From positions 24,187 through 88,186 of IMG/VR virus record IMGVR_UViG_3300018080_000015: 64,000 nt of DNA; one strand, written 5' to 3'. The translations under genes were made by a program, and so were the position numbers. How positions within the stretch are numbered: position 1 is the first letter of the stretch; every line of letters starts with the position of its first letter. Below the pieces are notes generated by a model that was not told the DNA's origin, ran no database searches, and was given only the letters and a program-made list of their open reading frames with translations. This stretch comes from a virus. This document shows positions 15,939 to 62,281 of the stretch, in pieces.

Positions 15939-17122
15939 GCCTCGTATACCTCCAATGTCTGAGCTGCAGGACTGTCCCAAGAGTAGCGCTTTGCGGTCTC
16001 GAGCGCACGATCTACTCGACTCTGATCGGGCATCCAAGCTCGCAGGGCAGAAACCAGACCACCGACCGTCGGCTCGATGATAACGGCGTTGGTGTCATTG
16101 CAGAAAGAACCGAGACCGCCGACGCCCGTTGTGATCAGTGGCACAGAAGCTGCCATCCATTCGAGCGCCACGATACCAAAGGGCTCGTGCAGCGAGGGCA
16201 CGAGGCCGACCGTAGCCGATTTCAGTCGCGCCCACTTGGGGAGGCCAAAGTCCTCTTCGCGCGACCAGGTGACGTTGGGGGTTGCCGCAATGAGCCCATC
16301 CATGATAGGCACCATCTCCTCCAGCGAGGGCGAGATAGCCGCTTGGATGAGGAAGTCCCACTCTGGGAGCTCTTTTGCGGCATCAACGACCAGCTGCAGA
16401 CCCTTCGAGGGAACCAACCTACCGACGAAGGCAGCCAGAGGTCTGTCTGACTCTCGCCGTTCGGGCTTGACGGCCGCGAAAGCCTCCCAGTCCACCCCGT
16501 TTGGGATGACGCGAATCTTTTCGGGGGGAACCAGAAATGTCTCTTCGAGCATCTTCCGATAGGAAGGGCTTACAGCAATCACCCTGTTGGCTGTGTGGTA
16601 CGCGTGAAGTTCCGTCTCGCAGCCCCACTCATAGTTCGGAAGGCTATCCGGGTGCACCGACGTGTGACTGAGATGTGACGTCACAACGAGATGGGCTCGG
16701 TGCGCGAGACAGGCCACCTTGGCGACGGGCAAGAGATGGGTCTCGTGCATGTGAACCAGATCGAAGTGCTCGTGCGCGAAGAAGTGAGCCCAATTGCAGA
16801 CGAAGTTTTCGAACTTCACCACCTCGTGAGCCATGCCCTTGACCAGGTCCATGTTGTGCTCGTTGAGGTTTCGGATGTGAAGCAGCCGATAAGAACCGGT
16901 AGGAGCTCCGGCCCGCCACTCCGGCTCTGATACCTCCCGCGGCACCCCATCTTCGACGATCAACAGTCGCTGGTACTGGTCCTTGCCGATGCCCATCAGC
17001 GTGAGGTCGACGTGCTCGCACAGACGGCTGGCGATGGACAACACGTGTACTCCAAGACCTCCCTGTGGTTCGAAGGGACTCTCAAACAGCAGCATCAAGA
17101 CTCTAGGGCGTTCGCCAGACAC
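15851..17122 (-). CDS. Glycosyltransferase family 4 (GT-B)
   Basis: 'GGLGVHV', 'FDLVHMHE', 'VIPNGVD', 'FVGRLVPSKG', 'PSLHEPFGIVALEWMA...GVGGL'. Confidence 0.92.
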   Translation of the reverse strand: MSGERPRVLMLLFESPFEPQGGLGVHVLSIASRLCEHVDLTLMGIGKDQYQRLLIVEDGVPREVSEPEWRAGAPTGSYRLLHIRNLNEHNMDLVKGMAHEVVKFENFVCNWAHFFAHEHFDLVHMHETHLLPVAKVACLAHRAHLVVTSHLSHTSVHPDSLPNYEWGCETELHAYHTANRVIAVSPSYRKMLEETFLVPPEKIRVIPNGVDWEAFAAVKPERRESDRPLAAFVGRLVPSKGLQLVVDAAKELPEWDFLIQAAISPSLEEMVPIMDGLIAATPNVTWSREEDFGLPKWARLKSATVGLVPSLHEPFGIVALEWMAASVPLITTGVGGLGSFCNDTNAVIIEPTVGGLVSALRAWMPDQSRVDRALETAKRYSWDSPAAQTLEVYEACLRKSGSSTRPSTRSGREASTPASHSLI

Positions 17123-18114: not shown

Positions 18115-18452
18115 CAGCCATTGATGATGTTGCGGAGCTTGTTTCTGCAGTTCTCGAGGGGATCGAGACAGCGGTGCACGCCCGCCACAAGGGCCTCTTG
18201 GATGTCCCCCACGGCGTCACTGTACTTGTACTTGCCGTGAGTCTTCTTCCTGAAAACCCCCCTGTAACTCCACGTCTCGTTTTCGGCATCCCAGATCGCT
18301 CGTACGCCCACGATCCCCAGTTTGGTCTTGGACAACACGAGCACATCGTCTGAGCCGCGCTTGGGAAGAGACACGGTCTTCTTCCCAGGCAACTGCCCGC
18401 CGAAGACGTTGAGGATTGCCGCGGACACTGCGATCTGTTCTGGGCTGAACAT
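18114..18452 (-). CDS. Hypothetical protein
   Basis: ORF coupled to the downstream gene. Confidence 0.55.
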   Translation of the reverse strand: MFSPEQIAVSAAILNVFGGQLPGKKTVSLPKRGSDDVLVLSKTKLGIVGVRAIWDAENETWSYRGVFRKKTHGKYKYSDAVGDIQEALVAGVHRCLDPLENCRNKLRNIING

Positions 18453-18546
18453 AGACGCCTCGGATCGATTGATCTGGTGAACCTCGAGGTCTTCTGGATC
18501 AGTTGGTGTGCTCCGAGCTCGAGCTCGGACAGATCAAACGATCTGC

Positions 18547-48881: not shown

Positions 48882-49592
48882 TTATCCTCCCGATACCTTT
48901 GATCCTACTTCATTCGGATCAGTGCTGTCAACCGCATTATTGCTTGATTTGCGCGTTTTTTGATAGGCTCTGAAGCCCTCTTTCGCAAGGACTGCGAGCG
49001 CCCGATCCGTCTTCCGAATCTGCGTTTTTGGTTTGCGCTTGCCGGGGAGATACAGGCTCCACGGTTTGCGGACACTCTCCCGACCCAGCTTCGCCACGAG
49101 GCGGCCATCGAGCTCGAGCTTGATCCACTGCTTCGTTTTGGTGAGCTTGGCCCCCGTCAGCTTTCGCCAAATCGTGAAGATACGGGCTGCCCGTTTCGGC
49201 GACTCCTCCAGGCAGGCCTTCCAGACGTCCTCTACGAACTCCGGCGTGGCGTAGACTGTCCCCTCCCGGCGCACGCCACCCTCCGCGGGAGCGAACTCGA
49301 GCCGCAGCGCCCCATCGGCCACGAGCGTCACGAGGTACAGGTTCTGCGGGCTCGGCCCGGAGCGTCGGGTCGTCCAGTTCTGGATGGTGTTCGTGCCCCC
49401 AGCCTTCCCCTCATCTCGAGCGTACCAGTCGAGCGCCTGACACAGCTCCACGTAGGTGCAATAGCGCCTCGTCCAGTGCTCGCTCTTCGGCCCGGTGATC
49501 CGGTGCACCGCATCCAGTGCGGCCCTGCGGTCGGTTTCTCGCTGGGCCTGTTCACGCTCCTGAAGGAGCTCTGAGACTAGCTGGTCAAGCAT
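48882..49592 (-). CDS. Hypothetical protein, possible HTH
   Basis: Strong SD; 'TIQNWTTRRSGPS' resembles an Xre-type HTH. Confidence 0.55.
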   Translation of the reverse strand: MLDQLVSELLQEREQAQRETDRRAALDAVHRITGPKSEHWTRRYCTYVELCQALDWYARDEGKAGGTNTIQNWTTRRSGPSPQNLYLVTLVADGALRLEFAPAEGGVRREGTVYATPEFVEDVWKACLEESPKRAARIFTIWRKLTGAKLTKTKQWIKLELDGRLVAKLGRESVRKPWSLYLPGKRKPKTQIRKTDRALAVLAKEGFRAYQKTRKSSNNAVDSTDPNEVGSKVSGG

Positions 49593-49611
49593 GATTTTCC
49601 TCCTCTCCTGG

Positions 49612-49643
49612 AATCGCTACCACATGCCTCCGGTGCGTGTCAA
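49612..49643 (-). promoter_or_regulatory. Possible sigma70-type promoter
   Basis: TTGACA-18 nt-TAGCGA between the terminator and the SD of 48882-49592; -10 element non-canonical. Confidence 0.3.
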
Positions 49644-49658
49644 GATCACATGCATCTG

Positions 49659-49706
49659 AAAAATGAAAAGCCCCCAAGGAACGTCCCTGTCCCCTGGGGG
49701 CTTTTC
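49659..49706 (-). terminator. Intrinsic terminator closing the early-gene array
   Basis: GAAAAGCCCCCA...TGGGGGCTTTTC stem with T-run on the minus strand. Confidence 0.8.
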
Positions 49707-49726
49707 CCGCGTGGAGGCACACACGG

Positions 49727-50422
49727 TCACTCGATGTCCTTGAGCCTGGTGATTCGACACCGCTTCCACCCGCGCGGCTCGACCCTGAACCTCGTGGTCT
49801 GAACACCCGACACCTTAGCGGATGCGCTGATCACCCTCTCGGCTTCGGCGACGGTGCAATCGTCGCATTCGATCGCCTCGCCTACCTGGATGGTCTCTGC
49901 GCCGCAAGGAGACACATAAGGCCAAAGGCTCGTGCTCCCTGTCAAGAGGTAGAGCGTCGTCGGCAGCTCGTCAACGTCCCTATAGAAAGCATCCCCACAG
50001 GAACCAATCAGCCGTCCATCTGTCGTTTTGCCCGTAACCGTAATCATCTCGCCACACACAGTGCAAACCTCGTGCGGCCCGTCCCACACCCTGATGGTGT
50101 GGTGCCCCTCCGCGTCGATCCACACCTCCACTGGAGTGGTGAGGTTCGAGCACGTGTTCACGTTCTGAATCGCTGTCATGAACACGTCTCGAAGATCGGG
50201 CAAGTCCTCCTGTATCTCCCCTCCCGCGTATTCTCCGGGCTTGAGAAACGACTGCAGGAAGCAACTTGCCACGAGCTCCCGGTACTCGTCGTCTGGCATG
50301 ACCGAAAGGGCCATCCACACTGAGTAGGGTCGCTCCTTCTCCTCGTCTGTGTACTCGTCGCGGTCGTAGGGCTCTCCCTCGGCGAAGAAGAACTCTGGTG
50401 AGAACGATAGTTCAAAACTCAT
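49727..50422 (-). CDS. Hypothetical early protein
   Basis: GGGAGG SD; last gene before the terminator. Confidence 0.65.
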   Translation of the reverse strand: MSFELSFSPEFFFAEGEPYDRDEYTDEEKERPYSVWMALSVMPDDEYRELVASCFLQSFLKPGEYAGGEIQEDLPDLRDVFMTAIQNVNTCSNLTTPVEVWIDAEGHHTIRVWDGPHEVCTVCGEMITVTGKTTDGRLIGSCGDAFYRDVDELPTTLYLLTGSTSLWPYVSPCGAETIQVGEAIECDDCTVAEAERVISASAKVSGVQTTRFRVEPRGWKRCRITRLKDIE

Positions 50423-50439
50423 CGTTTCCTCCCTGTTGT

Positions 50440-50847
50440 TCGCTATGCTCTCGGTGACGCGCTCCGGCTACTGGTTAGATGATTCGGCTAAAGCCGACGC
50501 TCCTGATGACGTCTTCGATCGGAGTCTTGGCGTCCACGGTCTCACCCTGACGGTCCGAGCCCAAGAGAACGCCGTTGCCGGCGAAGAAATCCTGGTGGGC
50601 GCCTTCGAGCGTGAAGCCGTAGCGGACTGGCTTCAAGAGCCCCTCGTCGTCGACGTACACGGTATCCCTGTTGGGGAACATGTGCGCCAATGCGACGCAA
50701 CTAAACTTGCCCGCTCCGTAGATGTGCCTGATGTCGCTGTCGGGAAATGAAGTCTCCACGACCCTCTGGTTCTTGGCATCGATGATAATTGCTCTGATAC
50801 TCATGGTGTGCATCCTTGGTTGGAGCGCGCCACTGAGAGCATAGCGA
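50440..50847. repeat. Gene-flanking inverted repeat A (arms 50440-50465 / 50822-50847)
   Basis: tcgctatgctctcggtgacgcgctcc versus reverse complement tcgctatgctctcagtggcgcgctcc, 24/26. Confidence 0.95.
50475..50804 (-). CDS. DUF3846-like early protein
   Basis: 'VYVDDEGLLK...FAGNGVLLG.D..GET'. Confidence 0.65.
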   Translation of the reverse strand: MSIRAIIIDAKNQRVVETSFPDSDIRHIYGAGKFSCVALAHMFPNRDTVYVDDEGLLKPVRYGFTLEGAHQDFFAGNGVLLGSDRQGETVDAKTPIEDVIRSVGFSRII

Positions 50848-50855
50848 GGTTTGGT

Positions 50856-51601
50856 GTTGTACGCACAACCACGGCGGCCACTGTTTCTACTTAATAGTCA
50901 AAATGTGAGTAGGTCGACGCCTCGCACTCCCCGGCACAATCTGTACCGCAATGCGGGCACACCCACTCCTGCTCTTCCGCGAAGATCGCGTCTTGGCACT
51001 TCTGGCAACACCCGCTGATGCGGTACTCCTGCCTGGAGATCTCGTCCTTGAACTCCGTCGCCAGCCCGCCACACCACGTGCACAAATCCTTTCGGATCTG
51101 CCCGCGGCGAGACTTGCCAATCACGAAGTCGAGGAACTGTTCGACTCCTTCGCTCTTCTTACTTGGTTCTGCCACGACCCCTCCACACATTGAAGTATGA
51201 GAACTGCTTGGTTCCGCACGTGCACGGGTGTGGTGGGACGATTGTCCCGTCACTGAAGAGACACCATCGCGAGTGTTTTTTCACTCGGACTGTCTCCTCT
51301 CCCGGACGCCGGAGCAAAACGGCCTGTTTCTTCGTCATATCACGAGCACTCTGACGCCCCCACTCATGTGAGGGACGAGCGGCACCCAAATGCCGTCAAT
51401 GCGGACTTCCGCATCGTCTGAGAGCACCACCTCATCGCCGCCGATTCCGAAGCACGGCACTGGCCGCACGTAGTAGCGACGCTTTCCGTCGATCTCCTCG
51501 AAATCTGCTCGAGCGCTTAGAACGTCCACGAGTCTGTCTGTTGATCCTATCCATCCCATGTTTGCCTCCACTGTGGTGGCCGCCGTGGGTGTACGTACAA
51601 C
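50856..51601. repeat. Gene-flanking inverted repeat B (50856-50881 / 51576-51601)
   Basis: gttgtacgcacaaccacggcggccac versus gttgtacgtacacccacggcggccac, 24/26. Confidence 0.95.
50891..51559 (-). other. Three small overlapping early ORFs (50891-51175, 51159-51338, 51335-51559)
   Basis: SDs and overlapping starts/stops; 50891-51175 has CTWC and CQKC motifs. Confidence 0.6.
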
Positions 51602-51662
51602 TACTGTTGATGACATCCGGTGCGGTACCTCTCACGAGAACGTGGTCCCCGTGGAGACCGTT

Positions 51663-52090
51663 TTATATCACGAACACCTCTGCGCTTGTGGCCTCGGACC
51701 AATCGCTCTGTTCATCCCAATAGATCTCATTAGCGATGTTGTCGAGCGCCTGGATCAATGAGCCTTTCCAAACCGCTTTACCGTCATCATCGAAGAACTG
51801 CACCTCAAGCTCATTGAGCTCCGCGACTATGTCGCTGAGGACTGCAACACGAGCTGACATACTCCAACTCATACTGCGGCCCTGATCGCTTCCTTGAGCG
51901 TCTTGAAGCGGCCTTTCTGAACTGCGGGAGCGGCGTCGGGATCGTTGGAGCCTGGTGTGAGCCAAAGCACCTTATAGAGATTCCACACCCACAGTCCCTT
52001 GCGCACGAACCATTTACGATTCGGCGACACGTACGAACCTCTCCTGCTTTTCGTCCACCCGTATCGGATGGTCTCTTTCTGTTCCGTCAT
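51663..52090 (-). other. Two small coupled early ORFs (51663-51872, 51869-52090)
   Basis: SD AGGAGG at 52090; ATGA overlap. Confidence 0.6.
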
Positions 52091-52105
52091 GATGCCTCCT
52101 ATGCA

Positions 52106-52628
52106 TCGAGGGCACGACGCAAAGCACGAGCCTGTTTTACTCTACTTGCCTGTTGGCATGCGGAGCCGGCGAAGCGTCGTCAACTGTGCCTCCCTATCTA
52201 GTAGGAACCACAAAGCCGACCGATAAGCCGCCTCCTGGGTTGAGGGAGGACCATCGAGAACGTGGTCCACCACGTCAACCACCGTCTCCACGCACTGTGC
52301 CATCGTGGCCGTCTTGAAGAACTCCTCAAGACCGCTGAAGGTCCCTCCTTCGTCAAGCGAATCGATGAGCCTCTGCATGCTCGCGTCAAACCACGGGCGC
52401 TCCCCTATCTCGAATCCGCGACCGTGTTTCTTTCTGGAGCGAAGCCATCGAAACTTGTCCGCAAGCCCCTCTGGTATTCCTCCCGGTTTGGGTCCTACCG
52501 GGAGAGAGTGCCCGAGCTGAGTCGGAATCTCCCGGTTGAATACTACTGACTTGTGAGTAATCTTCTCTTCCATGTTACCTCCCTTGGTACTGTAACGGGG
52601 AGGCTCGTGCTTTGCGGCGCGCCCTCGA
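52106..52628. repeat. Gene-flanking inverted repeat D, nested in C (52106-52133 / 52601-52628)
   Basis: tcgagggcacgacgcaaagcacgagcct versus tcgagggcgcgccgcaaagcacgagcct, 26/28. Confidence 0.95.
52142..52573 (-). CDS. Hypothetical early protein
   Basis: SD AGGGAGGT. Confidence 0.65.
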   Translation of the reverse strand: MEEKITHKSVVFNREIPTQLGHSLPVGPKPGGIPEGLADKFRWLRSRKKHGRGFEIGERPWFDASMQRLIDSLDEGGTFSGLEEFFKTATMAQCVETVVDVVDHVLDGPPSTQEAAYRSALWFLLDREAQLTTLRRLRMPTGK

Positions 52629-52698
52629 CTGAATCGTCAGTGAGAGGCACCGCACTGGATGTCATCGGATGTGCTTCCGCTTGGGACCGCGAGCGGTT

Positions 52699-53145
52699 TT
52701 ACATTTTCGCTCGCTCTGTTCTGAGATGTCGAATGTCTTCGATGATTGATTCCCTGTCCGACTCTACAAGATGCAAAGCCGAACCAACCCTGCGCACCCA
52801 CTCTTGTCCTCGAATCACGTCCCGCTCTGGAGTATGCGGATGCCCCATAAAGAGGTCCGCTGTGTGCTGAACACCCCTCATTGCGGCCTCACGCTGTGTC
52901 GTCGAACCGAACGTTGAAGCTCGCGCCGTGAGATTCCCTTTCCGGAGATAAACGTATGTCCACCCACCGAGATAAGGCTGAACCACAAGCGCCAAGATGT
53001 CCCCAATTCCTCGGACGATCAATAGATTGTCTGAGGAGTCGAGCTTGTAGAGCTCCACGGCGGCCTGACTAAGTGCTGCCTCGCGGGCGAGTTTGAGCGT
53101 CCTGTCTTTTTTCACGATCGGGCCGATTCTGAATTCCCGTGCCAT
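52699..53145 (-). CDS. Hypothetical early protein
   Basis: SD GGAGGT. Confidence 0.6.
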   Translation of the reverse strand: MAREFRIGPIVKKDRTLKLAREAALSQAAVELYKLDSSDNLLIVRGIGDILALVVQPYLGGWTYVYLRKGNLTARASTFGSTTQREAAMRGVQHTADLFMGHPHTPERDVIRGQEWVRRVGSALHLVESDRESIIEDIRHLRTERAKM

Positions 53146-53161
53146 AGTTACCTCCACTCTT

Positions 53162-53589
53162 GATGTGAACATCACTGTGGCCACCACGATTTCTAGTCTA
53201 GCGCAACATCCCCCGCGCGGGAGGATCACTGCGCTTCGTACGGCGAAAAGCCTCACCCTTGAGCCATCCTGTGGTCTCGTATCGATCGGAGAGTAGATAC
53301 CTCCGCGCACGCGCAACTGCCTCGTTTTTGTCCACGCACGCCACCACGAACCGAACCGGATTGAATCTGAGGTTCGTCTTTGCGAGCGCATTCGCAAACT
53401 CTTGCGCGATACAATGCCTGATGTCGAACGCTATCCCCTCCTCGTCGGATAGATCGTCCCACTGTTCCAAGTGAGCGCGAACGATCGTTTCGAGGGGGAG
53501 AGACGCTATCACTCTGGCGATTAGATCGAAGTGTTTCTTTGTCATCGTCTGTGCCTCCTTTTTGTGGTGGCCACAACGATGCTCACATC
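53162..53589. repeat. Gene-flanking inverted repeat F, nested in E (53162-53187 / 53564-53589)
   Basis: gatgtgaacatcactgtggccaccac versus gatgtgagcatcgttgtggccaccac, 23/26; all three differences are G-U pairs in the mRNA. Confidence 0.95.
53198..53545 (-). CDS. Hypothetical early protein (MTKKHF...NLRFNPVRFVVAC)
   Basis: SD AAGGAGG; motif resembles small phage early proteins. Confidence 0.65.
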   Translation of the reverse strand: MTKKHFDLIARVIASLPLETIVRAHLEQWDDLSDEEGIAFDIRHCIAQEFANALAKTNLRFNPVRFVVACVDKNEAVARARRYLLSDRYETTGWLKGEAFRRTKRSDPPARGMLR

Positions 53590-53672
53590 CACTGGGGCTC
53601 GCGGCCCCAAGTGGAAGCACATCCTTCGGTTAGCTCGCCAAGCTGTGCGCCCGTCCGGGCGCGAGCGAAGGG

Positions 53673-55007
53673 CTACTTCTTGCCCTTCTTGCTGGTCTTC
53701 TTCTTCCCTCCTTTCTTGGTCTTCTTACTGGTCTTCTTCTCTCCCTTCTTGGCCTTCGCGGGCTGCTCCGCGATCTCCCCGGCGATAGCCCTATTCCCGA
53801 CCTCCACGGGCTGCTCGACGTTGACGTTTCCGCCCGGAACCTGTCTGAGCGGCTTGAGCTGCACGAGCCCATAGTTCTTGGACGCGCTATGCCGCGCGAG
53901 GAAAATCGCTGCGGCTTGCCCGCCCATGAGGACATCCTTGCCTGCCTTGGTGGGAATCCACCCCATGTTGCACTTCGTGCAATCGAGCATCCTGAGTACA
54001 TCTTCGTCCGGAGAATCCGGGAGAAGCTTGTATCCCTCGCACTCTGTGCACGGCACCTCGAGCGGATCTGAGAAGGCTGCCGTGGAACGCTCATACTCAT
54101 CGCGGAGAGTCTTGAGCTGTTTCTGGGCCTTTTTGAGCTCCCGCTCAAAAATCCGCCCCTCCTTGGTCTTGGCTGCCTTGAGGTTTCCCTTCTCGGTGTA
54201 GAACTCGCTGGTCTTCTTCTTCTTGCCCTTGGACGTCTTGTCCTTCTCTGCGCTCTTGGACTTCTTGGGCTTGAGGCCCTCATCATCCTTGGCCAGAGCT
54301 TCGTCGAGGGCGACCTTGAGCCGCCGACACTTGGCCTGCTGATCGTCGGTCTTGAGCCTGGCGAGCTTCGCCTCTTGCTCTGCCTTCGACCATTCCTTGT
54401 AGACCTTGGTCCGCTTGCTCTTGCCTTCTGCCTTCTCGGCCAATTTCTCGGCCTGGGCCTTGGCCTCCTTGGCCGTCTTCACGAGAGCTCTGAGCTCCGC
54501 ACGTTCGTCCTCGAGCTCCTGCTCGAGTTCCTTGACGGATTTCTCGGGTTCGGAAGCCTCTGCCTCTTCCTCGGACTCTTCGTCCTCGTCATCTGGCTCG
54601 TCTTCTTCTTCCTCCTCCTCCGCTTCTGCGTCCTCGAAGTCCGACTCGTCGTCATCATCCTGCTCTTCGTCTTCTTCCTCCTCCTCGAAGTCTTCTGATT
54701 CCTCCTCGTCATCGTCGTCCCACTCGAAGCTGTCGTCCTCTTCGTCTTCGTACTCCAGCCAATGCTCGAGAAGAGCCTCGAGCGGCTCGCCCTTGGAGAT
54801 CTGAGCTTGGGTGTAGAGCCCAATCTCATCTCCCTCCTGGTCGAGCGCTGCGATCTTGCCCTTCGTCGTCTTGCTGGGGACCAACATGCCGAGTTCATCG
54901 TTGTCTTCCTCGGGAAGGACGACTCTGTAGCCTTTGATGCTCTTGTCGGGCACCACGTGGACCACTGAACCGAGAACCTTGCGCTTGATCACTTTCTTCT
55001 TCGCCAT
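53673..55007 (-). CDS. Acidic/basic low-complexity protein with Zn finger
   Basis: Long D/E tract, coiled coil, CTEC/CTKC and Lys-rich tail. Confidence 0.7.
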   Translation of the reverse strand: MAKKKVIKRKVLGSVVHVVPDKSIKGYRVVLPEEDNDELGMLVPSKTTKGKIAALDQEGDEIGLYTQAQISKGEPLEALLEHWLEYEDEEDDSFEWDDDDEEESEDFEEEEEDEEQDDDDESDFEDAEAEEEEEEDEPDDEDEESEEEAEASEPEKSVKELEQELEDERAELRALVKTAKEAKAQAEKLAEKAEGKSKRTKVYKEWSKAEQEAKLARLKTDDQQAKCRRLKVALDEALAKDDEGLKPKKSKSAEKDKTSKGKKKKTSEFYTEKGNLKAAKTKEGRIFERELKKAQKQLKTLRDEYERSTAAFSDPLEVPCTECEGYKLLPDSPDEDVLRMLDCTKCNMGWIPTKAGKDVLMGGQAAAIFLARHSASKNYGLVQLKPLRQVPGGNVNVEQPVEVGNRAIAGEIAEQPAKAKKGEKKTSKKTKKGGKKKTSKKGKK

Positions 55008-55049
55008 GCTGTGTACCTCCCTTACGGGTTCACGAACGACCCACCCACT

Positions 55050-55764
55050 GCGGGTCGACACCGCGCAAGCCATCACCTGCGCTGCCTCCTACCGCGGAGG
55101 CAATCCTCGAGCGGCACGACGTCTCTCCTGATCGTAGTCGGTGTCACGAGCTGCACCCGGCAACTGCTCCACCATTTTCTCGACCAAGGCCTGAGAGTCG
55201 CACCGCACGAAGAAGTTGCGTCCTTTGGCCTCGAACCACAACTTCTGAATGCACCAACCGTGACCGCACTCGCACTCACCGTATTCCCTGCGGACGACGA
55301 CCTCGACGGTCGAGATATCGGCATCCTCTGGGTCTTCGGCGTCCACATCATAGATGTAGTAGCGAGCGCGGACGTCTGGCTCATCGCCATGGTCCGCTTC
55401 GCATGCAACACACTGCCACATATGCTTTCTCCGGGACATCACCATCCTCCGTTCTCGCCTGAGAGGAACATCTCCCACACTTTCTGAGGCTCACCGCCCA
55501 AGCACGGGATCGTGCCTGGGTCGCCTCTATCTTCTTCGGTGGCTTCGAGAGCCTGCTGGAGCGTGAGCTCCATGCATTCCTCGTCGCCCTCCTGAGCGAA
55601 GTAGATAGCCTCTTGAAAGAGGTAGAGGCTCTCATAGCGATCTGCGTGGAATTGAACGTCGTCCGGATTGAGCTGTTTCATGCGCTCGAAGAGCTTGGAC
55701 ATCACGTACCCCCATTGTAAGGCCCGGACTGAGCCGGGCGGTTGATGGATTGCGCGGTGCCCGC
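55050..55764. repeat. Gene-flanking inverted repeat H, nested in G (55050-55080 / 55738-55764)
   Basis: gcggg[tcga]caccgcgcaagccatcacctgc versus gcgggcaccgcgcaatccatcaaccgc; 4-nt bulge. Confidence 0.8.
55089..55702 (-). other. Two coupled early ORFs (55089-55439, 55439-55702)
   Basis: TGATG overlap and SDs. Confidence 0.6.
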
Positions 55765-55821
55765 GAACTGTGCTCGGATGGACGCACAACTTGGCGAACT
55801 AACCTGGTCGCTTGCTTCACA

Positions 55822-56201
55822 CACTTGCCGTGTCGCGCGCACCCAACCACTACCTGTTAGGGTAGTCGTTCATGGGAAACGCGCGGTTATCACGATTCCC
55901 GACGCACTCTGTCATGGGAGCGACGTTCATGGACCCACAAACGAGGCACACGAACAACTGCTTCCCACTCGGAGAGCATCGATGAATCGGGACATACTGA
56001 CCCGGATGCGGATCCGATGGGCTATCCTCGAAAGGAACCGTCGCCCTGGGGACGAGCAAGCCCCGACGGGCCAATCCGTCCACGATTTTAGCTACGAGCT
56101 GCGGCTCGCGTTCACAAAACTCCGGGTCCGCAAACCTTCTGATGTCGAGCTTCATTTGACTCATGACGTCCTCCTGTTGGGTGAGCACGACATGGCAAGT
56201 G
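55822..56201. repeat. Gene-flanking inverted repeat I (55822-55847 / 56176-56201)
   Basis: cacttgccgtgtcgcgcgcacccaac versus cacttgccatgtcgtgctcacccaac, 23/26. Confidence 0.93.
55850..56164 (-). CDS. Hypothetical early protein
   Basis: SD AGGAGG. Confidence 0.6.
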   Translation of the reverse strand: MSQMKLDIRRFADPEFCEREPQLVAKIVDGLARRGLLVPRATVPFEDSPSDPHPGQYVPIHRCSPSGKQLFVCLVCGSMNVAPMTECVGNRDNRAFPMNDYPNR

Positions 56202-56204
56202 GCT

Positions 56205-56593
56205 GGTTGAACTCCTTTCGTGTGCGCTCTCTATGCTGTTATCTCATGTCCTGTTCGAAACCTTGCGCGATGGCGGACTGTTCGAATTCTTCGAGTTTGT
56301 CCCACCAATGACGCGCCTTGTCATCGTTCTGGAGCGACCGTCGCCCACAAGGGTACTCGACGGTGCCGTTACTGCCATCTCCTCCCAACGGAGTCGGGTT
56401 CTTGGATTCTGCAAGAATCCTCCAAAGCTTGGAATAGAGCTCACGCCACGACTTTCCTTCTGGCATGAACCTTTCGTAATCCACGCACTCTGCGACTTCA
56501 TCCGCTGTCCAATACTCAAGCCCTTCTGGCATTTTCACGCTCATAACTCACCTCCCTACTGCACTCGAGAGCGCACACGGGAGGAGTTCAACC
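56205..56593. repeat. Gene-flanking inverted repeat J (56205-56231 / 56567-56593)
   Basis: ggttgaactcctttcgtgtgcgctctc versus ggttgaactcctcccgtgtgcgctctc, 25/27. Confidence 0.95.
56239..56544 (-). CDS. Hypothetical early protein
   Basis: SD GGGAGGTG. Confidence 0.65.
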   Translation of the reverse strand: MSVKMPEGLEYWTADEVAECVDYERFMPEGKSWRELYSKLWRILAESKNPTPLGGDGSNGTVEYPCGRRSLQNDDKARHWWDKLEEFEQSAIAQGFEQDMR

Positions 56594-56605
56594 TGCTTGC
56601 TTCGC

Positions 56606-56927
56606 TTGACAACAACGCACCCTCCGCGCCCCTTACTGACGCGGTGACCGCTAGATGAAACCGAGAAGCATCATCCAACTGGGCACTCCATGCTCACACA
56701 CGCCGTCTGGTTCTACCCAACACCCGCAAGAAGTGTAGCAACCCGACTCCCTTGCCCACGCTTCGAGCTGTTCGATGTCCGGCTTCGGCTCGACGATATC
56801 GACCCGACGCTGTTTCCCGCCCATTCGAAGAATGATGAAATCGGCGTGACTGGCGTCCTCTGCGAAAGTACTCATGCTGTTCCTCCGTCCTGTTGATTAA
56901 GGGGTCCGGAGGATGCGCTGTTGTCAA
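56606..56927. repeat. Gene-flanking inverted repeat K (56606-56635 / 56898-56927)
   Basis: ttgacaacaacgcaccctccgcgcccctta versus ttgacaacagcgcatcctccggacccctta, 26/30. Confidence 0.93.
56651..56875 (-). CDS. Small Cys-rich phage protein (C..VEPDG.C.HG.PSW)
   Basis: Motif recurrent in small phage proteins; SD GGAGG. Confidence 0.7.
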   Translation of the reverse strand: MSTFAEDASHADFIILRMGGKQRRVDIVEPKPDIEQLEAWARESGCYTSCGCWVEPDGVCEHGVPSWMMLLGFI

Positions 56928-57524
56928 AGACACGTCACAAGGCGCGAGGCTAGGATTATAGTGAAATAACCGAGCCCGACCTGGGCTCGGTCGGGACTAG
57001 CGCTTCAAGCTCCGCGGGGATTCGAATCTGACTCAACACTTCCCATCGAAGCGCGGTAGGCATCGCCGCCCAAAGCTCACTGCGGTAGTGATGCTCGGAA
57101 TCCATCGGAGCGCAATCACTGATGTAGAAATCCACGTAGTGATAGACGGCGAGCCACATCTGCTTTCTGCGTAGAAACGTGGCTCGAGAGCGACTCACCT
57201 CCTGGTTCTTTTCGCTCTCGAGTGTCCACACTCCACACGGTCCGACTGAGTAATACGGCTCGTCTTCCGTCGTTTCAAGCTGCTCTTCAAGCAACCCATC
57301 CACCGCGGCCCCCTTGACGAGATCCTGGATGCTTTCCACCATCCATTGGTGTTCCTCGTCTGTGAGCTTGAACGCCCGGTCGCGCACGTTCCTGATCTTG
57401 TATCGGACATGCGCGATGTAGACGCCATCGCCCTGGAATTCCGTGGTGTCGGGAAATTCTCGTTTCAATGTTGGTCTGGTCATAGTGCCTCCACAAAACT
57501 CGCGCCTTGTGAGCTGCCTTTGAC
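56923..57524. repeat. Gene-flanking inverted repeat L (56923-56948 / 57499-57524)
   Basis: gtcaaagacacgtcacaaggcgcgag versus gtcaaaggcagctcacaaggcgcgag, 23/26. Confidence 0.92.
56956..57483 (-). CDS. Hypothetical early protein
   Basis: SD GGAGG. Confidence 0.65.
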   Translation of the reverse strand: MTRPTLKREFPDTTEFQGDGVYIAHVRYKIRNVRDRAFKLTDEEHQWMVESIQDLVKGAAVDGLLEEQLETTEDEPYYSVGPCGVWTLESEKNQEVSRSRATFLRRKQMWLAVYHYVDFYISDCAPMDSEHHYRSELWAAMPTALRWEVLSQIRIPAELEALVPTEPRSGSVISL

Positions 57525-57527
57525 CTC

Positions 57528-57867
57528 TGGTTGGCTCCTTTGCTCGCGCCACAAGTCGAGCTTGTGACGGAGGTTAACGAAAGTCTTTCGGACTGGGACC
57601 GAATCCTCCGATCCTACCGGGACAATTCGGCGCGTAGGATCGTGAGATGGTACGGCCCGCTTTGATAGAATCAAAGCGGGCTGCGCCGTCTCCGTACACC
57701 CGACACGATTCCTCAACCCCAGCCCATACACACGCGTTGACAATAGCACCCGATACTTCGGGCACTATCCAACGCGCTTCGCGCGCCTTCGCGCGCCTTC
57801 GACGCTTGCGCTTGCGTTTCGCCATGCTTTCTCCTTGGTTTGTGGAGCGAGCGAAGCAAGCCAACCA
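57528..57867. repeat. Gene-flanking inverted repeat M (57528-57554 / 57839-57867)
   Basis: tggttggctcctttgctcgcgccacaa versus tggttggcttgcttcgctcgctccacaa with internal loop. Confidence 0.85.
57574..57825 (-). CDS. Arg-rich hypothetical early protein
   Basis: SD AAGGAG; first gene of the array. Confidence 0.55.
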   Translation of the reverse strand: MAKRKRKRRRRAKAREARWIVPEVSGAIVNACVWAGVEESCRVYGDGAARFDSIKAGRTISRSYAPNCPGRIGGFGPSPKDFR

Positions 57868-58401
57868 TATCTCGTATACACTCCGATCCTACTACCCACC
57901 AAAGGGGAGGATACTCGGAGCTACGTTTGTCAAATATGCGGTCAAACGGTGCACAACGTGAGGGAAGCACTAGGGGAGCGCTAGCGGCTTTCGAGAGGCG
58001 CCCCTCAAGCATCCCATTGCGACCACCATACGGGGAGGGAGACTTAAAGCCTTACCAACCTTGCGCGCCCGAAGCACGCCGCTCAACTTCCATGTCGCGG
58101 CTCGCGCGAAGCCTTGTCTCTCCACGCCACCTTGATATTGGTTAGCTCTACTAATCGCTAGATGTACCCTAAGATGTCAACGTTGTGCGGCTCTAACCGT
58201 GTGCTCGCACGGTCGCCCCCCTCCGAGGGGAACACGAGCCCCGTCGCGGGTAGTATCCCGCTCCCAAGCGGTTACTTGGGACCCGATCGTTGATCCACGA
58301 TCCGTGCCGATTACACACATTCGGTGCATGAAAAGCACCAAGTCAAGCAATGGTGCGGGTTTGCGCGTACCTCGCGAGGCTTTTCACGCATCGAATGTAT
58401 G

Positions 58402-58523
58402 ACAAGGTGTCACGGTTTTTCGACCCCACTTGTAAACGCGCGTTCACACGCCGATTTCAAGGCCCCACAAGGCCCACAAGGCGCTTGACACGAATGCGGA
58501 GGATGACAAGGGACAAGGCCTTG
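58402..58523. repeat. Cluster of short ACAAGG direct repeats in non-coding gap
   Basis: ACAAGG at 58402, 58467, 58476, 58506 and 58513, plus TCAAGG at 58457. Confidence 0.55.
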
Positions 58524-58605
58524 CTCGCGGTCTCGGAGCGTGCGAGAGACCTTGCCGGCCATGCCCACCCGCACCCGCGCACCCACGCACCCGCGAGGCG
58601 CTGAG

Positions 58606-59559
58606 CTACCGACGGCGAGCGAGCCAGCTCGAGAACACGCTCCCGCTCTCGCGCGGGGCACTGGAGAGGAGCTCGTCGTAGGTGTACTCAGTCGCACGCT
58701 CGACCCTCCGGCGTAGGTCAGGCACGGAGTCGGGGTCTTCGTCCCCAGTGAAGTGCACGATGCGTACCCGCTTGCCGACCTCCAGGAGCGCGAGCGCGAG
58801 CTTGCGGGCCTCCTGGGTAGCATCACCGTCGTAGGCGACATACAGGAGCTCCTGTGGCGCTCCTACGAGGCGCTCGAGCTGGGGCTCGGAGAAGCTCTTG
58901 CCGAACGTGGCGACAGCCTGGGGACCGAGCGCACACGCGGCGGGGATTCCCTCAGCGATGAAGATGTAATCGTTGGCCGGAGAGAGCGCCTTGTCAGCGT
59001 TGAAGAGGAGGCTCTTGCGGCGGGTGCCGGGAGCAGACATCCAGCGCTTGGACTTCTCCGTGGCGTCCATGTAGCGGGCCTGATAGCCCTTGTAGCCACC
59101 GTCGTATAGCGGGAAGATGGCTGAACGACGGAGACGCACGTACTTCTTTGTAGTGCCTACGTCCCGCCCGGTGCCGTCCACCACAGTGAGGAAGACGGAG
59201 CCTTCGTAGTTCGAGCCGCAGACGCCGAACTCTCGGATTTGCTCTGCAGTGAACCCGCGTCGGACGAGGTATCTGAATGGGGCGCTGTTGGGCCTCAATG
59301 GGGAAGCCTCAATCTGCTCGAGCGTGGGCGGGAGCCACGAGAGCTCTTGCTTAGGCCCGACGCTCGGGATGTAGCCGATTTGCGCGAGGCGGAACACTGA
59401 GCCCTTGTACTGGCACCTCATGCAGTAGAAAGCACCAGACTGCGCGTTGACGTAGAGCTTCGGAGCCCCACACTCGCCGCAGTGAAAGAGCATCTCGCGC
59501 GGGTCGGTGTTGAGCGCCCGCCCGAAGAGCTCCACTGCGATGTCACGCGCGCGACTCAT
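58606..59559 (-). CDS. DNA primase (Zn ribbon + TOPRIM)
   Basis: CGEC...CMRC; 'YQAR'; TOPRIM 'IAEG', 'VAYDGD', 'DPD'. Confidence 0.88.
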   Translation of the reverse strand: MSRARDIAVELFGRALNTDPREMLFHCGECGAPKLYVNAQSGAFYCMRCQYKGSVFRLAQIGYIPSVGPKQELSWLPPTLEQIEASPLRPNSAPFRYLVRRGFTAEQIREFGVCGSNYEGSVFLTVVDGTGRDVGTTKKYVRLRRSAIFPLYDGGYKGYQARYMDATEKSKRWMSAPGTRRKSLLFNADKALSPANDYIFIAEGIPAACALGPQAVATFGKSFSEPQLERLVGAPQELLYVAYDGDATQEARKLALALLEVGKRVRIVHFTGDEDPDSVPDLRRRVERATEYTYDELLSSAPRESGSVFSSWLARRR

Positions 59560-59770
59560 GCTCTCCCGGTCTCGCACACACTGGACAATAGCAGCCTGGT
59601 CCCATCAGTATCGCGAAGAGCCCAATGATGTACCCCCAACCGTGATCTGCGTGGGCTTTCTCGCACGCACGCAACTCCGGCGCAGCTCCACGACCGACGT
59701 GAAGCTCAAGAGTACAACCACAGCTGTCGCACTCCAACGTGGCATGCTGCTTCTTCATCGTAACCGGCAT
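59543..59770 (-). CDS. Small Zn-ribbon protein
   Basis: CDSC...CPVC; SD. Confidence 0.5.
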   Translation of the reverse strand: MPVTMKKQHATLECDSCGCTLELHVGRGAAPELRACEKAHADHGWGYIIGLFAILMGPGCYCPVCARPGEHESRA

Positions 59771-59793
59771 ATTCCTTCTCCTGTTTTCGGGGA

Positions 59794-60003
59794 TGCGACC
59801 GGAACTTACTCAGCTTTGCGAGCCATGCACGATCGTATTTTGGCTTTTGCGAAGCAGGGAGCAACCGAAGCTTGCGACCCTTTTTCGCCCAGCGAAAAAT
59901 AACAAAGATAGGATCGTGCAACTCCCAGGACGTTGGGTGTGTCCTGGAAGGGACGAGCAATTCACACGCACGGCGTATCGCCGCACCTAAGCTACCGGTC
60001 GCA
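59794..60003 (-). ncRNA. Candidate structured RNA immediately 3' of the tRNA-like element
   Basis: Closing stem 59794-59808 / 59988-60003 enclosing several internal stems. Confidence 0.45.
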
Positions 60004-60004
60004 A

Positions 60005-60077
60005 AGCGAGGGATGGGAATCGAACCCACAAACCGCCAGGGAGGTTGATTGAGACGGCGCACCTTTGCTTCCCTCGC
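60005..60077 (-). tRNA. tRNA-like element with non-canonical D arm and anticodon loop
   Basis: GCGAGGG/CCCTCGC acceptor stem, canonical GTGGG-TTCGATT-CCCAT T arm, 3-bp D stem, 5-bp anticodon stem with 15-nt loop. Confidence 0.65.
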
Positions 60078-60246
60078 AAGCTGGGTGGTTCCAATCGGAG
60101 TGAGGCCCACCCAATACATCCGACTCGAGCGGGAGCCGGATTGGCTCATACTACATCGTCCTGCCCTCCATCGTTTGAGCATTTTTCGTCCTAAAAACTG
60201 TCCCGGACCACCTCGGCGTGGTCTCTTCTCTCTTCTACGGGAACGC

Positions 60247-60612
60247 CTACTCTGCGGAAACCGTTTCGCGCCACTCGATCCCAAGCTCGAGCAGCGTTAC
60301 TCCGAGCATAGCCTCGATTCTACCCAGCCGCTCCTCGACGCGATCCCAGGCATCCGCCTCGTGCTCGAAGCACAATGCAGTCGCCACGGACCATCCGTCT
60401 TCGTGCATCTCCGGATCACGCTCCCGTATCAAGGAAAGGCGCTTGCGGCACGCCTCTCCACTGACAGCAATATCGCGCGAGGCCATCCACCCGGCCACCG
60501 CGCTCCACCAGTCCGCCTTCTTGCCGAAGGTCTCACGCAGATCCACGAGGCACTCCACGGCCTCCAACAGAACCTGCTCGTCCTCATCCGTCCACGAGTG
60601 TCTCGTCGCCAC
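60247..60612 (-). CDS. Myb/SANT-like (RsfA-type) DNA-binding protein
   Basis: 'SWTDEDEQVLLEAV...WSAVA....SGEACRKR'. Confidence 0.6.
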   Translation of the reverse strand: MATRHSWTDEDEQVLLEAVECLVDLRETFGKKADWWSAVAGWMASRDIAVSGEACRKRLSLIRERDPEMHEDGWSVATALCFEHEADAWDRVEERLGRIEAMLGVTLLELGIEWRETVSAE

Positions 60613-60771
60613 TGTCTACCTCCTTTCGTCGCAGCCTCGACGCGCACAGACGAAATGCCTGCGCAAGCGCCACCCATTGTCGTCTGTCCCAATACTCCAC
60701 GAGAGAGCCGCCCCTATCAGCCTCGACAGCCCACTCGTCGAACTCCCGAGCAATGACCTCCAACTGCTTTA

Positions 60772-60972
60772 TCACCTCAGCCCCTTCGCCTTCGCGATCC
60801 ACTCAGTCACCTCAAGTGTACCGACGTCGTTCTTGTGCTCGATGTCTGTCTCCCCATACACGATTTGTGAGCGAGGAAACCAGACCTCTTCTCCGTCGGG
60901 CATCTCGACCAGAAGCGCACGCTCTGTAGATGCGACGACCATGCAATCGTAGAACGTCACTGTGTCACTCAT
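60772..60972 (-). CDS. Small phage protein
   Basis: 'STERALLV...EEVWFPRSQI...VTEWIAKAKGL' motif recurrent in small phage proteins. Confidence 0.65.
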   Translation of the reverse strand: MSDTVTFYDCMVVASTERALLVEMPDGEEVWFPRSQIVYGETDIEHKNDVGTLEVTEWIAKAKGLR

Positions 60973-62281
60973 CGTCTTCGTCCTCCAGATCGAAATCGAG
61001 AGAGAATCCGTCTCCCTCCCAGGGGGAGACGATCATGTTGGTACACCCCATGTCCACGCCGAACATGAGCAGTCTGCGGGGTGGTCCCCACCGATTCTTC
61101 ATCCCGAAGATTCCAAACTGGCCCTCGGTCTCGAGCTTGTTCTTCTCGAGATGAATCGACCAGAAGCCGTCCAGGGCGTTCGACTTGCCTCCGGAGCCCT
61201 CGACCTGACCGAACTGCTCGATACCCTCCCATTGGCCCTTACCGGGCTGCGTGGCACCCCAACCGACGCATCCCATCTCTTCGATGATGCCGTGGAACTG
61301 AGCGTAGAGCCGAGCTTGGTCGACCCAGTAGTTGCCAGAGCCGGAGATGTCCGTGATGTTGAGCAGCTCGAAGTAGTCGAGGAACACGACGTCAGGCTTC
61401 GGGTCCAGCGAGCGGAGATAGGCGCCGACCTGGGTGATATCCATCGAGTAGGGGTAGAACTTCACGCAGAAGAGGTTGCCGCCCGCGCGCTCGATAGCCT
61501 TTCGAGCTCGCGCCAGTGATCTCTTGCCTTTGTCGGTCTTGAGCTCCCAGAGCGGGAGCCCGGTCGTGATCATGTCCGTCCTGGCGAAGATGGAGGCCTT
61601 CTTCATCTCGTAGCTGAGATAGACCACGTAGGCGCCTTGCTTCATCGCGTTCACTGCGAGGTTGTTCATCATGCGGGTCTTGCCAGCACCCTGCCCACCG
61701 ACAATCACCTCGAGCTCGCCGACAGCTGGGCCTCCGTCCGTCAACGCGTCCCAATCGTCGTAGCCTGTTAGCCAGCGGCGCCCGCGACCCATCGGGTCGT
61801 CCTTGTAGCGCTCGTCTGCATCCTCATCGAGCCATGTACCGTCGTCGACCGCAGACGAGGTTGTCTGCGCCCGAGAGACCGCCTTCATCGCCGCACCGCG
61901 GTCTCCTGCGTTCACAAGGTCCATCGCCTCGGCGATACACTTCTGAGCGTGCGCGAGCTCGATGAGATCCTTCAGTTCGTCCCCGTAGATCTTCTGCACT
62001 TCGTCTGTCGGGAGCTTGAAGGCGCGCTTGGCGAACTTCACACAGCGCTTTGCGTTGGCCTTGTGTTCGCTCCCGAGCTCTGTGACGAACGTGCGCTTGG
62101 ACGGTACGCGCCCCAGTTTGTCGAAGAGTCGGAGGAGGGTTCGCGTGCACCGCACAGCCGTCGGTGCCGCGAAGATATCCTCCGACACCATGGACCTGTG
62201 TTTCGAGAGAACGTCTGAGATAAGTAAGGCTGCGAAGAGCCGAAGTTGAAGGTGTAGCTCAACCTGAGCATCATCACTCAT
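60965..62281 (-). CDS. Replicative DNA helicase (DnaB/gp41-like)
   Basis: Walker A GGQGAGKT, 'YLSYEM', 'FLDY', 'ATQ', 'KNRWG'. Confidence 0.9.
   Translation of the reverse strand: MSDDAQVELHLQLRLFAALLISDVLSKHRSMVSEDIFAAPTAVRCTRTLLRLFDKLGRVPSKRTFVTELGSEHKANAKRCVKFAKRAFKLPTDEVQKIYGDELKDLIELAHAQKCIAEAMDLVNAGDRGAAMKAVSRAQTTSSAVDDGTWLDEDADERYKDDPMGRGRRWLTGYDDWDALTDGGPAVGELEVIVGGQGAGKTRMMNNLAVNAMKQGAYVVYLSYEMKKASIFARTDMITTGLPLWELKTDKGKRSLARARKAIERAGGNLFCVKFYPYSMDITQVGAYLRSLDPKPDVVFLDYFELLNITDISGSGNYWVDQARLYAQFHGIIEEMGCVGWGATQPGKGQWEGIEQFGQVEGSGGKSNALDGFWSIHLEKNKLETEGQFGIFGMKNRWGPPRRLLMFGVDMGCTNMIVSPWEGDGFSLDFDLEDEDDE

Follow-up and report, generated by a model that had tools for sequence, protein, structure and literature searches.

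Long-range processing helices are textbook matter for ribosomal RNA (rRNA), as are local RNase III hairpins for phage T7. The RNase III sites between the early genes of T7 (R0.3 to R1.3), like those of SPO1 and SP82 early RNA, are local hairpins contained within one intergenic spacer; those of the T7 early message, described by Dunn and Studier in 1983, reportedly consist of stems with internal loops, and the retained hairpins are said to stabilise the products. In bacterial rrn operons, leader-trailer helices flank the 16S and 23S rRNA and are cut by RNase III (PMC6582327; PMC3074117), and in Bacillus subtilis the pairing of the 5' and 3' untranslated regions (UTRs) of the hbs mRNA controls ribonuclease access (PMC5737220). 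Here, we analyse an array of 13 long-range inverted-repeat pairs (A-M) enclosing small phage genes at positions 50440-57866 of a 64,000-nucleotide stretch of viral DNA, hereafter the window, which corresponds to positions 24,187 to 88,186 of the IMG/VR record IMGVR_UViG_3300018080_000015. For a chain of thirteen such helices around ordinary protein-coding genes there is no precedent in the literature searched: a full-text search of incomplete coverage returned no account of an array of gene-enclosing helices on phage protein-coding genes.

Pairs were detected with a repeat finder and with a separate x-drop search, a score of at least 15 defining a strong pair. Eleven of the 13 pairs are strong and two (H and M) are weaker, and each has a sequence of its own. 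The strong pairs measure 26-30 nt, are 87-93% complementary and have their arms 262-2117 nt apart; pair H is only 81% complementary, and pair M is gapped. A sequence-only reading of the window had listed 13 pairs of different sequence with arms 0.3-2.1 kb apart, and both searches recovered them in place; its description of pair G as 35 bp with six differences was nearly matched, the pair being extendable to 33 nt at 85%. The same reading had noticed no such pairs in the structural or replication regions. Across the whole 88,186-bp genome, at spacings of 60-4000 nt, the sole additional pair was a 15-bp match of chance size; at any distance, only a 66-bp pair with arms 26.5 kb apart and acidic-repeat coding sequence on opposite strands were found besides the array. 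Among 20 Markov shuffles of the window, 19 yielded no pair and one yielded a single pair (about 0.05 per 64 kb), so that confinement to the array holds. Three complete genomes of distant kin contained 0, 0 and 2 pairs and no array. No outermost stem around the whole operon was found.

When cognate arms were folded as RNA with their flanks, predicted duplex energies ranged from -43 to -62 kcal/mol, and in whole-unit folds each helix was part of the minimum free energy (MFE) structure with a base-pair probability of about 0.9-1.0, except H; in the 2257-nt fold of unit G, 29 of the 30 pairs of helix G were present in the MFE structure and none of helix H. Both in the MFE structure and in the ensemble, the predicted helices of 26-33 bp have the size of RNase III substrates (a helix of at least about 20-22 bp), as the sequence-only reading had supposed. 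They are also orthogonal, cognate duplexes averaging -48.5 kcal/mol versus -16.4 kcal/mol for non-cognate ones; adjacent arms within one spacer are mutually non-complementary (non-cognate mean -16 kcal/mol), and no direct-repeat families occur among the arms. The helices have a polarity, with 52% GC in the outer 10 bp and 74% in the inner 10 bp (11 of 12 stems, Wilcoxon p = 0.0015), which would be expected if each helix were cut centrally and its inner half had to stay stable alone. The first 6 bp from the outer end contain none of the 34 mismatches, whose median position is 14, and this central clustering was significant in a permutation test allowing for end-trimming (p = 0.0007).

All array genes lie on the minus strand, which from about 58.6 kb to 49.66 kb forms one apparent transcription unit, in which 18 small genes follow a structured leader and precede a terminator. 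The 18 open reading frames (ORFs) called each have a Shine-Dalgarno (SD) sequence and, except for the first (unit M), a coding pattern with higher GC at third (GC3) than at second (GC2) codon positions. Ten top-level units follow one another in the order M, L, K, J, I, G, E, C, B and A, and then comes one unenclosed gene. Each spacer leads from the stop codon through 2-27 nt, the 3' arm of unit n, 0-17 nt, the 5' arm of unit n+1 and 8-30 nt with the SD to the ATG, and the adjoining arms of units L and K share 5 nt. In the junction map no arm overlaps coding sequence; the map agrees with the earlier description of arms that flank complete ORFs and take up nearly all of the space between genes, and the intrinsic terminator then placed at the end of the unit is likewise present. 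Genes of multi-gene units are coupled by ATGA-type overlaps, with no arms in between. Units C, E and G, which have the longest loops, each contain a nested inner pair (D, F and H, respectively), whose 5' arm comes immediately after that of the outer pair and which closes after the first gene, or after the first two genes in the case of H. The features are listed below in transcript order, with window positions and strand.

58606-59577, minus strand: primase-like gene of 323 aa, directly upstream of the leader
57867-58605, minus strand: non-coding leader of about 740 nt between the primase-like gene and the first stem, with no ORF of coding GC3 pattern
58314-58401, minus strand: 23-bp local hairpin in the leader
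57530-57866, minus strand: unit M, 5' arm 57840-57866 and 3' arm 57530-57556, gapped and weaker, -43.1 kcal/mol
57825 to 57574, minus strand: unit M ORF of 83 aa, SD AAGGAG, arginine-rich N-terminus, GC3 of 0.56, coding status less certain
56923-57524, minus strand: unit L, arms 57499-57524 and 56923-56948, 26 nt with 23 matches, 24 of 26 pairs in the MFE structure, base-pair probability 0.92
57483 to 56956, minus strand: unit L gene of 175 aa, SD GGAGG
56606-56927, minus strand: unit K, arms 56898-56927 and 56606-56635, 30 nt with 26 matches, 28 pairs including G:U
56875 to 56651, minus strand: unit K gene of 74 aa; 5' arm with anti-SD UCCUCC, local fold of 5' arm plus leader at z = -3.69
56205-56593, minus strand: unit J, arms 56567-56593 and 56205-56231, 27 nt with 25 matches
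56544 to 56239, minus strand: unit J gene of 101 aa; 5' arm with anti-SD CUCCUCCC, local fold at z = -3.54
55822-56201, minus strand: unit I, arms 56176-56201 and 55822-55847, 26 nt with 23 matches, around a 104-aa gene (56164 to 55850)
53628-55804, minus strand: unit G, outer arms 55775-55804 and 53628-53657, 30-33 nt, 2117 nt apart
55733-55759 and 55059-55085, minus strand: weak pair H, nested in unit G, enclosing the genes 55702 to 55439 and 55445 to 55089
55007 to 53673, minus strand: 444-aa gene in unit G, between the 3' arms of H and G
52667-53624, minus strand: unit E, outer arms 53597-53624 and 52667-52694, 28 nt with 26 matches
53564-53589 and 53162-53187, minus strand: pair F, nested in unit E, enclosing a 115-aa gene (53545 to 53198) and followed by a 148-aa gene (53145 to 52699)
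51609-52666, minus strand: unit C, outer arms 52640-52666 and 51609-51635, 27 nt with 25 matches
52601-52628 and 52106-52133, minus strand: pair D, nested in unit C, 28 nt with 26 matches, enclosing a 143-aa gene (52573 to 52142)
52090 to 51869 and 51872 to 51663, minus strand: later genes of unit C, after D
50856-51601, minus strand: unit B, arms 51576-51601 and 50856-50881, 26 nt with 24 matches
51559 to 51335, 51338 to 51159 and 51175 to 50891, minus strand: three coupled genes of unit B
50440-50847, minus strand: unit A, arms 50822-50847 and 50440-50465, 26 nt with 24 matches, around a DUF3846-like gene of 112 aa (50813 to 50475)
50422 to 49727, minus strand: last cistron, of 231 aa, without an enclosing stem
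49706-49665, minus strand: strong intrinsic terminator, stem of 18 bp followed by a T-run; the region ends at 49655

The stop codons that precede the 3' arms are TAA or TAG in all 13 cases. Elsewhere in the genome TGA is the commonest stop, ending 45 of 87 long ORFs and 28 of 49 ORFs with a following spacer (52-57%), and it ends four of the five remaining genes of the operon, the bias having a binomial p of about 2e-5. The non-UGA stops may reflect selection that keeps ribosomes out of the helix, because UGA is the most read-through-prone stop codon. The 5' arms carry a further strand-specific sign: in four of the ten segments that comprise a 5' arm and its leader (K, J, E/F and C/D), the local folds have z values of -3.5 to -4.8 with 0 of 200 shuffles equally stable, and none of the ten 3' segments has a comparable fold. 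The four folds are based on a CCUCC-type stretch of the arm that pairs with the SD of the next gene. Thus, in the local MFE fold of unit E, the SD of the F-enclosed gene has the 5' arm of E as its partner (z = -3.86), and in unit C a local hairpin of the C and D 5' arms is combined with anti-SD:SD pairing by D (z = -4.78). Stop-codon bias, anti-SD content and GC polarity point to minus-sense mRNA rather than DNA as the level at which the arms act, and it is likely that arm pairing takes place in the mRNA and is under selection.

The alternative raised at the outset, that the arms serve cassette exchange or inversion at the DNA level, whether as ends of mobile or exchangeable cassettes (integron-like, or with a split-hairpin site) or through inversion of single units, is disfavoured by the same observations and by several others. 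Each unit would indeed make a complete promoter-less cassette with its own SD, and the repeats are equally complementary on both strands. However, the complete genome contains no match to tyrosine recombinases (PF00589) or to serine recombinases, resolvases or invertases (PF00239); the arms share no core site, GTTRRRY occurring in 2 of the 13 pairs only and at differing positions, and, as noted, they form no direct-repeat families; and the runs of perfect identity between arms, at 8-16 bp, are poor substrates for homologous recombination. Inversion would moreover turn genes antisense to the sole apparent direction of transcription, the stop-codon bias and the arm:SD pairing are meaningful only for minus-sense mRNA and meaningless for DNA, and the contigs of the probable source run show a single arrangement, which is weak evidence. 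A DNA-level role is thus improbable. Still more improbable is an origin of the repeats as a functionless by-product of template-switch mutation or of the mode of gene acquisition. The enclosed genes are all ORFans, no informative homologues of the array proteins having been found, and this would fit recent acquisition; 13 independent pairs placed precisely between stop and SD, with common polarity, central mismatches, orthogonality and stop-codon bias, argue otherwise.

We favour the reading in which the pairs form rRNA-style processing helices that would be cut by host RNase III into messages with clamped ends, and assign it a probability of about 0.5. Provided that both arms are transcribed together, 13 long-range helices of 26-33 bp would loop out ten units of 1-3 genes each, three of them with a nested helix. 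RNase III would cut each helix near its mismatched centre; the outer, AU-richer half-helices would end on discarded spacer fragments of 26-43 nt, and the GC-rich inner half-helices would stay paired, clamping the 5' and 3' ends of the message and shielding it from end-dependent RNases. Where pairs are nested, both ends of the message that follows might be splinted by a fragment of about 38 nt. For at least four units, an initial pairing of the 5' arm with the downstream ribosome-binding site may hold back translation until the 3' arm is transcribed. Families of RNase III, dsRBD, RtcB and RNA ligase were not found in the phage genome, and hence the cutting enzyme would be that of the host, as for T7. 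A sole 14-bit, sub-threshold match to Ribonuclease_3, located in an unrelated acidic protein, was judged spurious.

The main rival to processing is that the helices form in the mRNA and remain uncut, acting as clamps or insulators against exonucleases, against scanning by RNase E or J or against the loading of Rho, as a kinetic gate that releases the ribosome-binding site once transcription of the unit is complete, or by holding stop and start in proximity for ribosome recycling. Geometry and predicted stability fit this reading equally well, and so do the alternative arm:SD pairings of four of the ten units and the avoidance of TGA, which would stop ribosomes from melting the helix. On the other hand, bacterial RNase III generally accepts a duplex of 26-33 bp as a substrate, the difference in GC between inner and outer halves is not predicted for a helix that stays intact, and gating would concern a minority of units, in which held-back translation would expose the nascent RNA to Rho. 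Published examples lend the rival some weight, as internal loops at RNase III sites modulate, restrict or block cleavage, some of them allowing the enzyme to bind without cutting (PMC3074117), and a 14-bp 5'/3'-UTR pairing modulates RNase action on the B. subtilis hbs mRNA (PMC5737220). Taken together, we consider uncut helices unlikely.

The sequence-only reading had also suggested that the paired ends could be ligated after cutting, turning each unit into a circular mRNA. The ends would lie side by side in a duplex, and there is a parallel in archaea, where rRNA precursors with flanking processing stems are circularised. Nevertheless, the lack of RtcB and RNA ligase families in the genome speaks against it, RNase III products would present a 2-nt 3' overhang within the duplex and no nick, the archaeal bulge-helix-bulge motif is absent, and the composition of the proteome is not of the haloarchaeal-virus type. 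Ligation into circles can hardly be credited. A haloarchaeal virus with bulge-helix-bulge circularisation was ruled out by proteome composition and by the lack of 3-nt bulges.

Several points weigh against processing by RNase III. That the host supplies RNase III is an assumption, two of the pairs (H and M) are weak, and the search for a promoter of the array identified none. Anti-SD pairing is clear in only four of the ten units, and shuffled arms also often pair with an SD. Read in the minus sense, the arms have 15 G:U versus 9 A:C mismatches, a difference that is not significant and weakly favours that sense, and the predicted duplexes are about as stable in one sense as in the other. The central mismatches could just as well suppress DNA recombination or block cleavage. 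Finally, the search of sequencing runs listed no RNA run containing the sequence.

Beyond this locus, it is quite possible, and we propose it tentatively, that the array is one case of an undescribed, recurrent phage operon layout, a 'gene-in-a-loop' arrangement with an orthogonal helix for each cistron or group of cistrons, cutting by a host double-strand-specific RNase, clamped or splinted ends, and tuning of translation through anti-SD stretches and non-UGA stops. If true, this would constitute a natural modular route from one transcript to many separately stabilised messages, would be relevant to the control of early gene dosage by phages and to their evasion of host RNases, and could be a source of orthogonal insulator parts for synthetic operons. 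GC polarity, central mismatches, TGA avoidance and the anti-SD content of 5' arms provide concrete predictions that can be tested by mutation. The sequence-only reading labelled the operon early, which is conjecture. On the strand that they share, the helicase and primase genes lie upstream of the array, and no promoter that could support the timing was identified.

As regards the upstream part of the operon, the leader folds stably over 57867-58420 (z = -3.57, 0 of 100 shuffles equally stable), and at 57867-58605 it contains several TTGAC(A/T) boxes without a clear -10 element. Promoters inside the arms were considered, the outer end of K being TTGACA-like, and were rejected, as no -10 element accompanies it and a scan gave no minus-strand promoter in the arms. 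The 323-aa gene at 58606-59577 resembles by eye a primase with zinc finger and Toprim domain (CxxC...CxxC, then an acidic Toprim-like motif), and had no Pfam match at E <= 0.001. The first ORF of the array, in unit M, begins with MAKRKRKRRRRAKAREARW; this arginine-rich start is reminiscent of the RNA-binding motifs of lambda-N-type antiterminators. The same ORF contains a 23-bp local hairpin at 57644-57692.

Two further observations were made within the array. AACAG is its most enriched 5-mer (50400-57900, minus strand), with 25 occurrences observed where the rest of the genome would predict 4.2. The spacers (about 1 kb) contain nine of them, often as CAACAGG(A/G)GG just ahead of the SD, and the others are mostly GAA-CAG codon pairs; AACAG was dropped as an array signal, since codon and SD context largely explain the enrichment. 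At 51831-51904 (minus strand), where two array genes overlap, Rfam gave a sub-threshold match to Sulfolobus sRNA133, which scored 32.5 bits (gathering score 44, E = 0.004) and is probably due to chance.

The IMG/VR record is complete, comprising 88,186 bp with direct terminal repeats, and the window is part of it. The source is a novel tailed phage that has a sheath and encodes a portal of T4 type, a helicase of DnaB type and a primase-like protein. The closest protein kin in metagenomes (Logan contigs) are at most 50% identical for the helicase and at most 42% for the portal, and no cultured relative was found. A search of viral and genome contig collections with the 444-aa, 175-aa and PAPS-reductase-like proteins and a helicase alignment gave no match. 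In one metagenome relative (helicase 49% identical), the contig stops exactly at the helicase, so that the syntenic region is missing, and it has no long-range pairs. Nucleotide matches (blastn) were restricted to a low-complexity stretch coding for acidic repeats. Among sequencing runs, one DNA run contains the sequence and is probably the source sample; an independent Logan contig from this run is identical over 9 kb with zero differences, and the contigs of the run show neither variants nor joints at the arms.

The genome consists of two divergent arms, with the array about 6-14 kb into the minus-strand arm. From genome position 1 to about 16000, before the window, genes lie on the plus strand and include the C-terminus of a PolA-like polymerase. 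The 66-bp inverted repeat mentioned above, with 64 of 66 positions matching and arms 26.5 kb apart, joins window positions 18445-18510 to genome positions 16090-16155, which precede the window. Long Asp/Glu-rich low-complexity stretches occur both in the 444-aa protein (window 54529-54755, in the gene 55007 to 53673) and in a 556-aa protein (genome 7736-9406, plus strand); in both, a Lys-rich run and Cys motifs follow, and the two proteins otherwise look unrelated. The acidic repeat gives rise to spurious blastn matches to hundreds of phages and to extra metagenome depth.

Among the described systems, integron arrays bear a superficial resemblance to this one: both line up promoter-less cassettes, mostly of a single gene, with imperfect inverted repeats between them. 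An integron attC site, unlike the repeats described here, is a local hairpin at the 3' end of the cassette with conserved R and L boxes and needs the IntI integrase; in the array, the repeats are split across the gene, and neither a common GTTRRRY core nor an integrase is present. Invertible segments of the Hin/Gin/Cin type and shufflons are equally distant, given that no invertase is encoded, each pair is different and identity runs are 8-16 bp. The hbs mRNA shares the pairing of message ends and differs in that it is a single gene with a 14-bp pairing that modulates RNase Y, being neither an array nor a helix of the size recognised by double-strand-specific RNases. With the T7, SPO1 and SP82 sites, the proposed function shares the cutting of a phage polycistronic message between cistrons by a host enzyme. 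Unlike at those sites, the helix arms lie on opposite sides of a gene, with partners 262-2117 nt apart, and the sequences adjacent in one spacer belong to different helices instead of forming a local hairpin.

The closest counterparts are the rrn processing stalks. The array differs from them in that each helix surrounds one or more protein-coding genes that have ribosome-binding sites, in the number of helices (13 in series, including three nested pairs), and in its stop-codon bias and anti-SD content, for which rRNA offers no counterpart. Neither rRNA nor hammerhead nor any other Rfam family was found above threshold in 49000-61000, and boxA matches occur at chance level, one of them inside the array on the non-transcribed strand; because of the lack of rRNA, boxA and Rfam matches, the array is not a member of the class. 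It would nonetheless work like an rrn processing stalk: complementary arms lie hundreds to thousands of nt apart and form helices of about 26-44 bp with imperfections inside the helix, and such helices follow one another in series, each around a whole functional unit of a polycistronic precursor.

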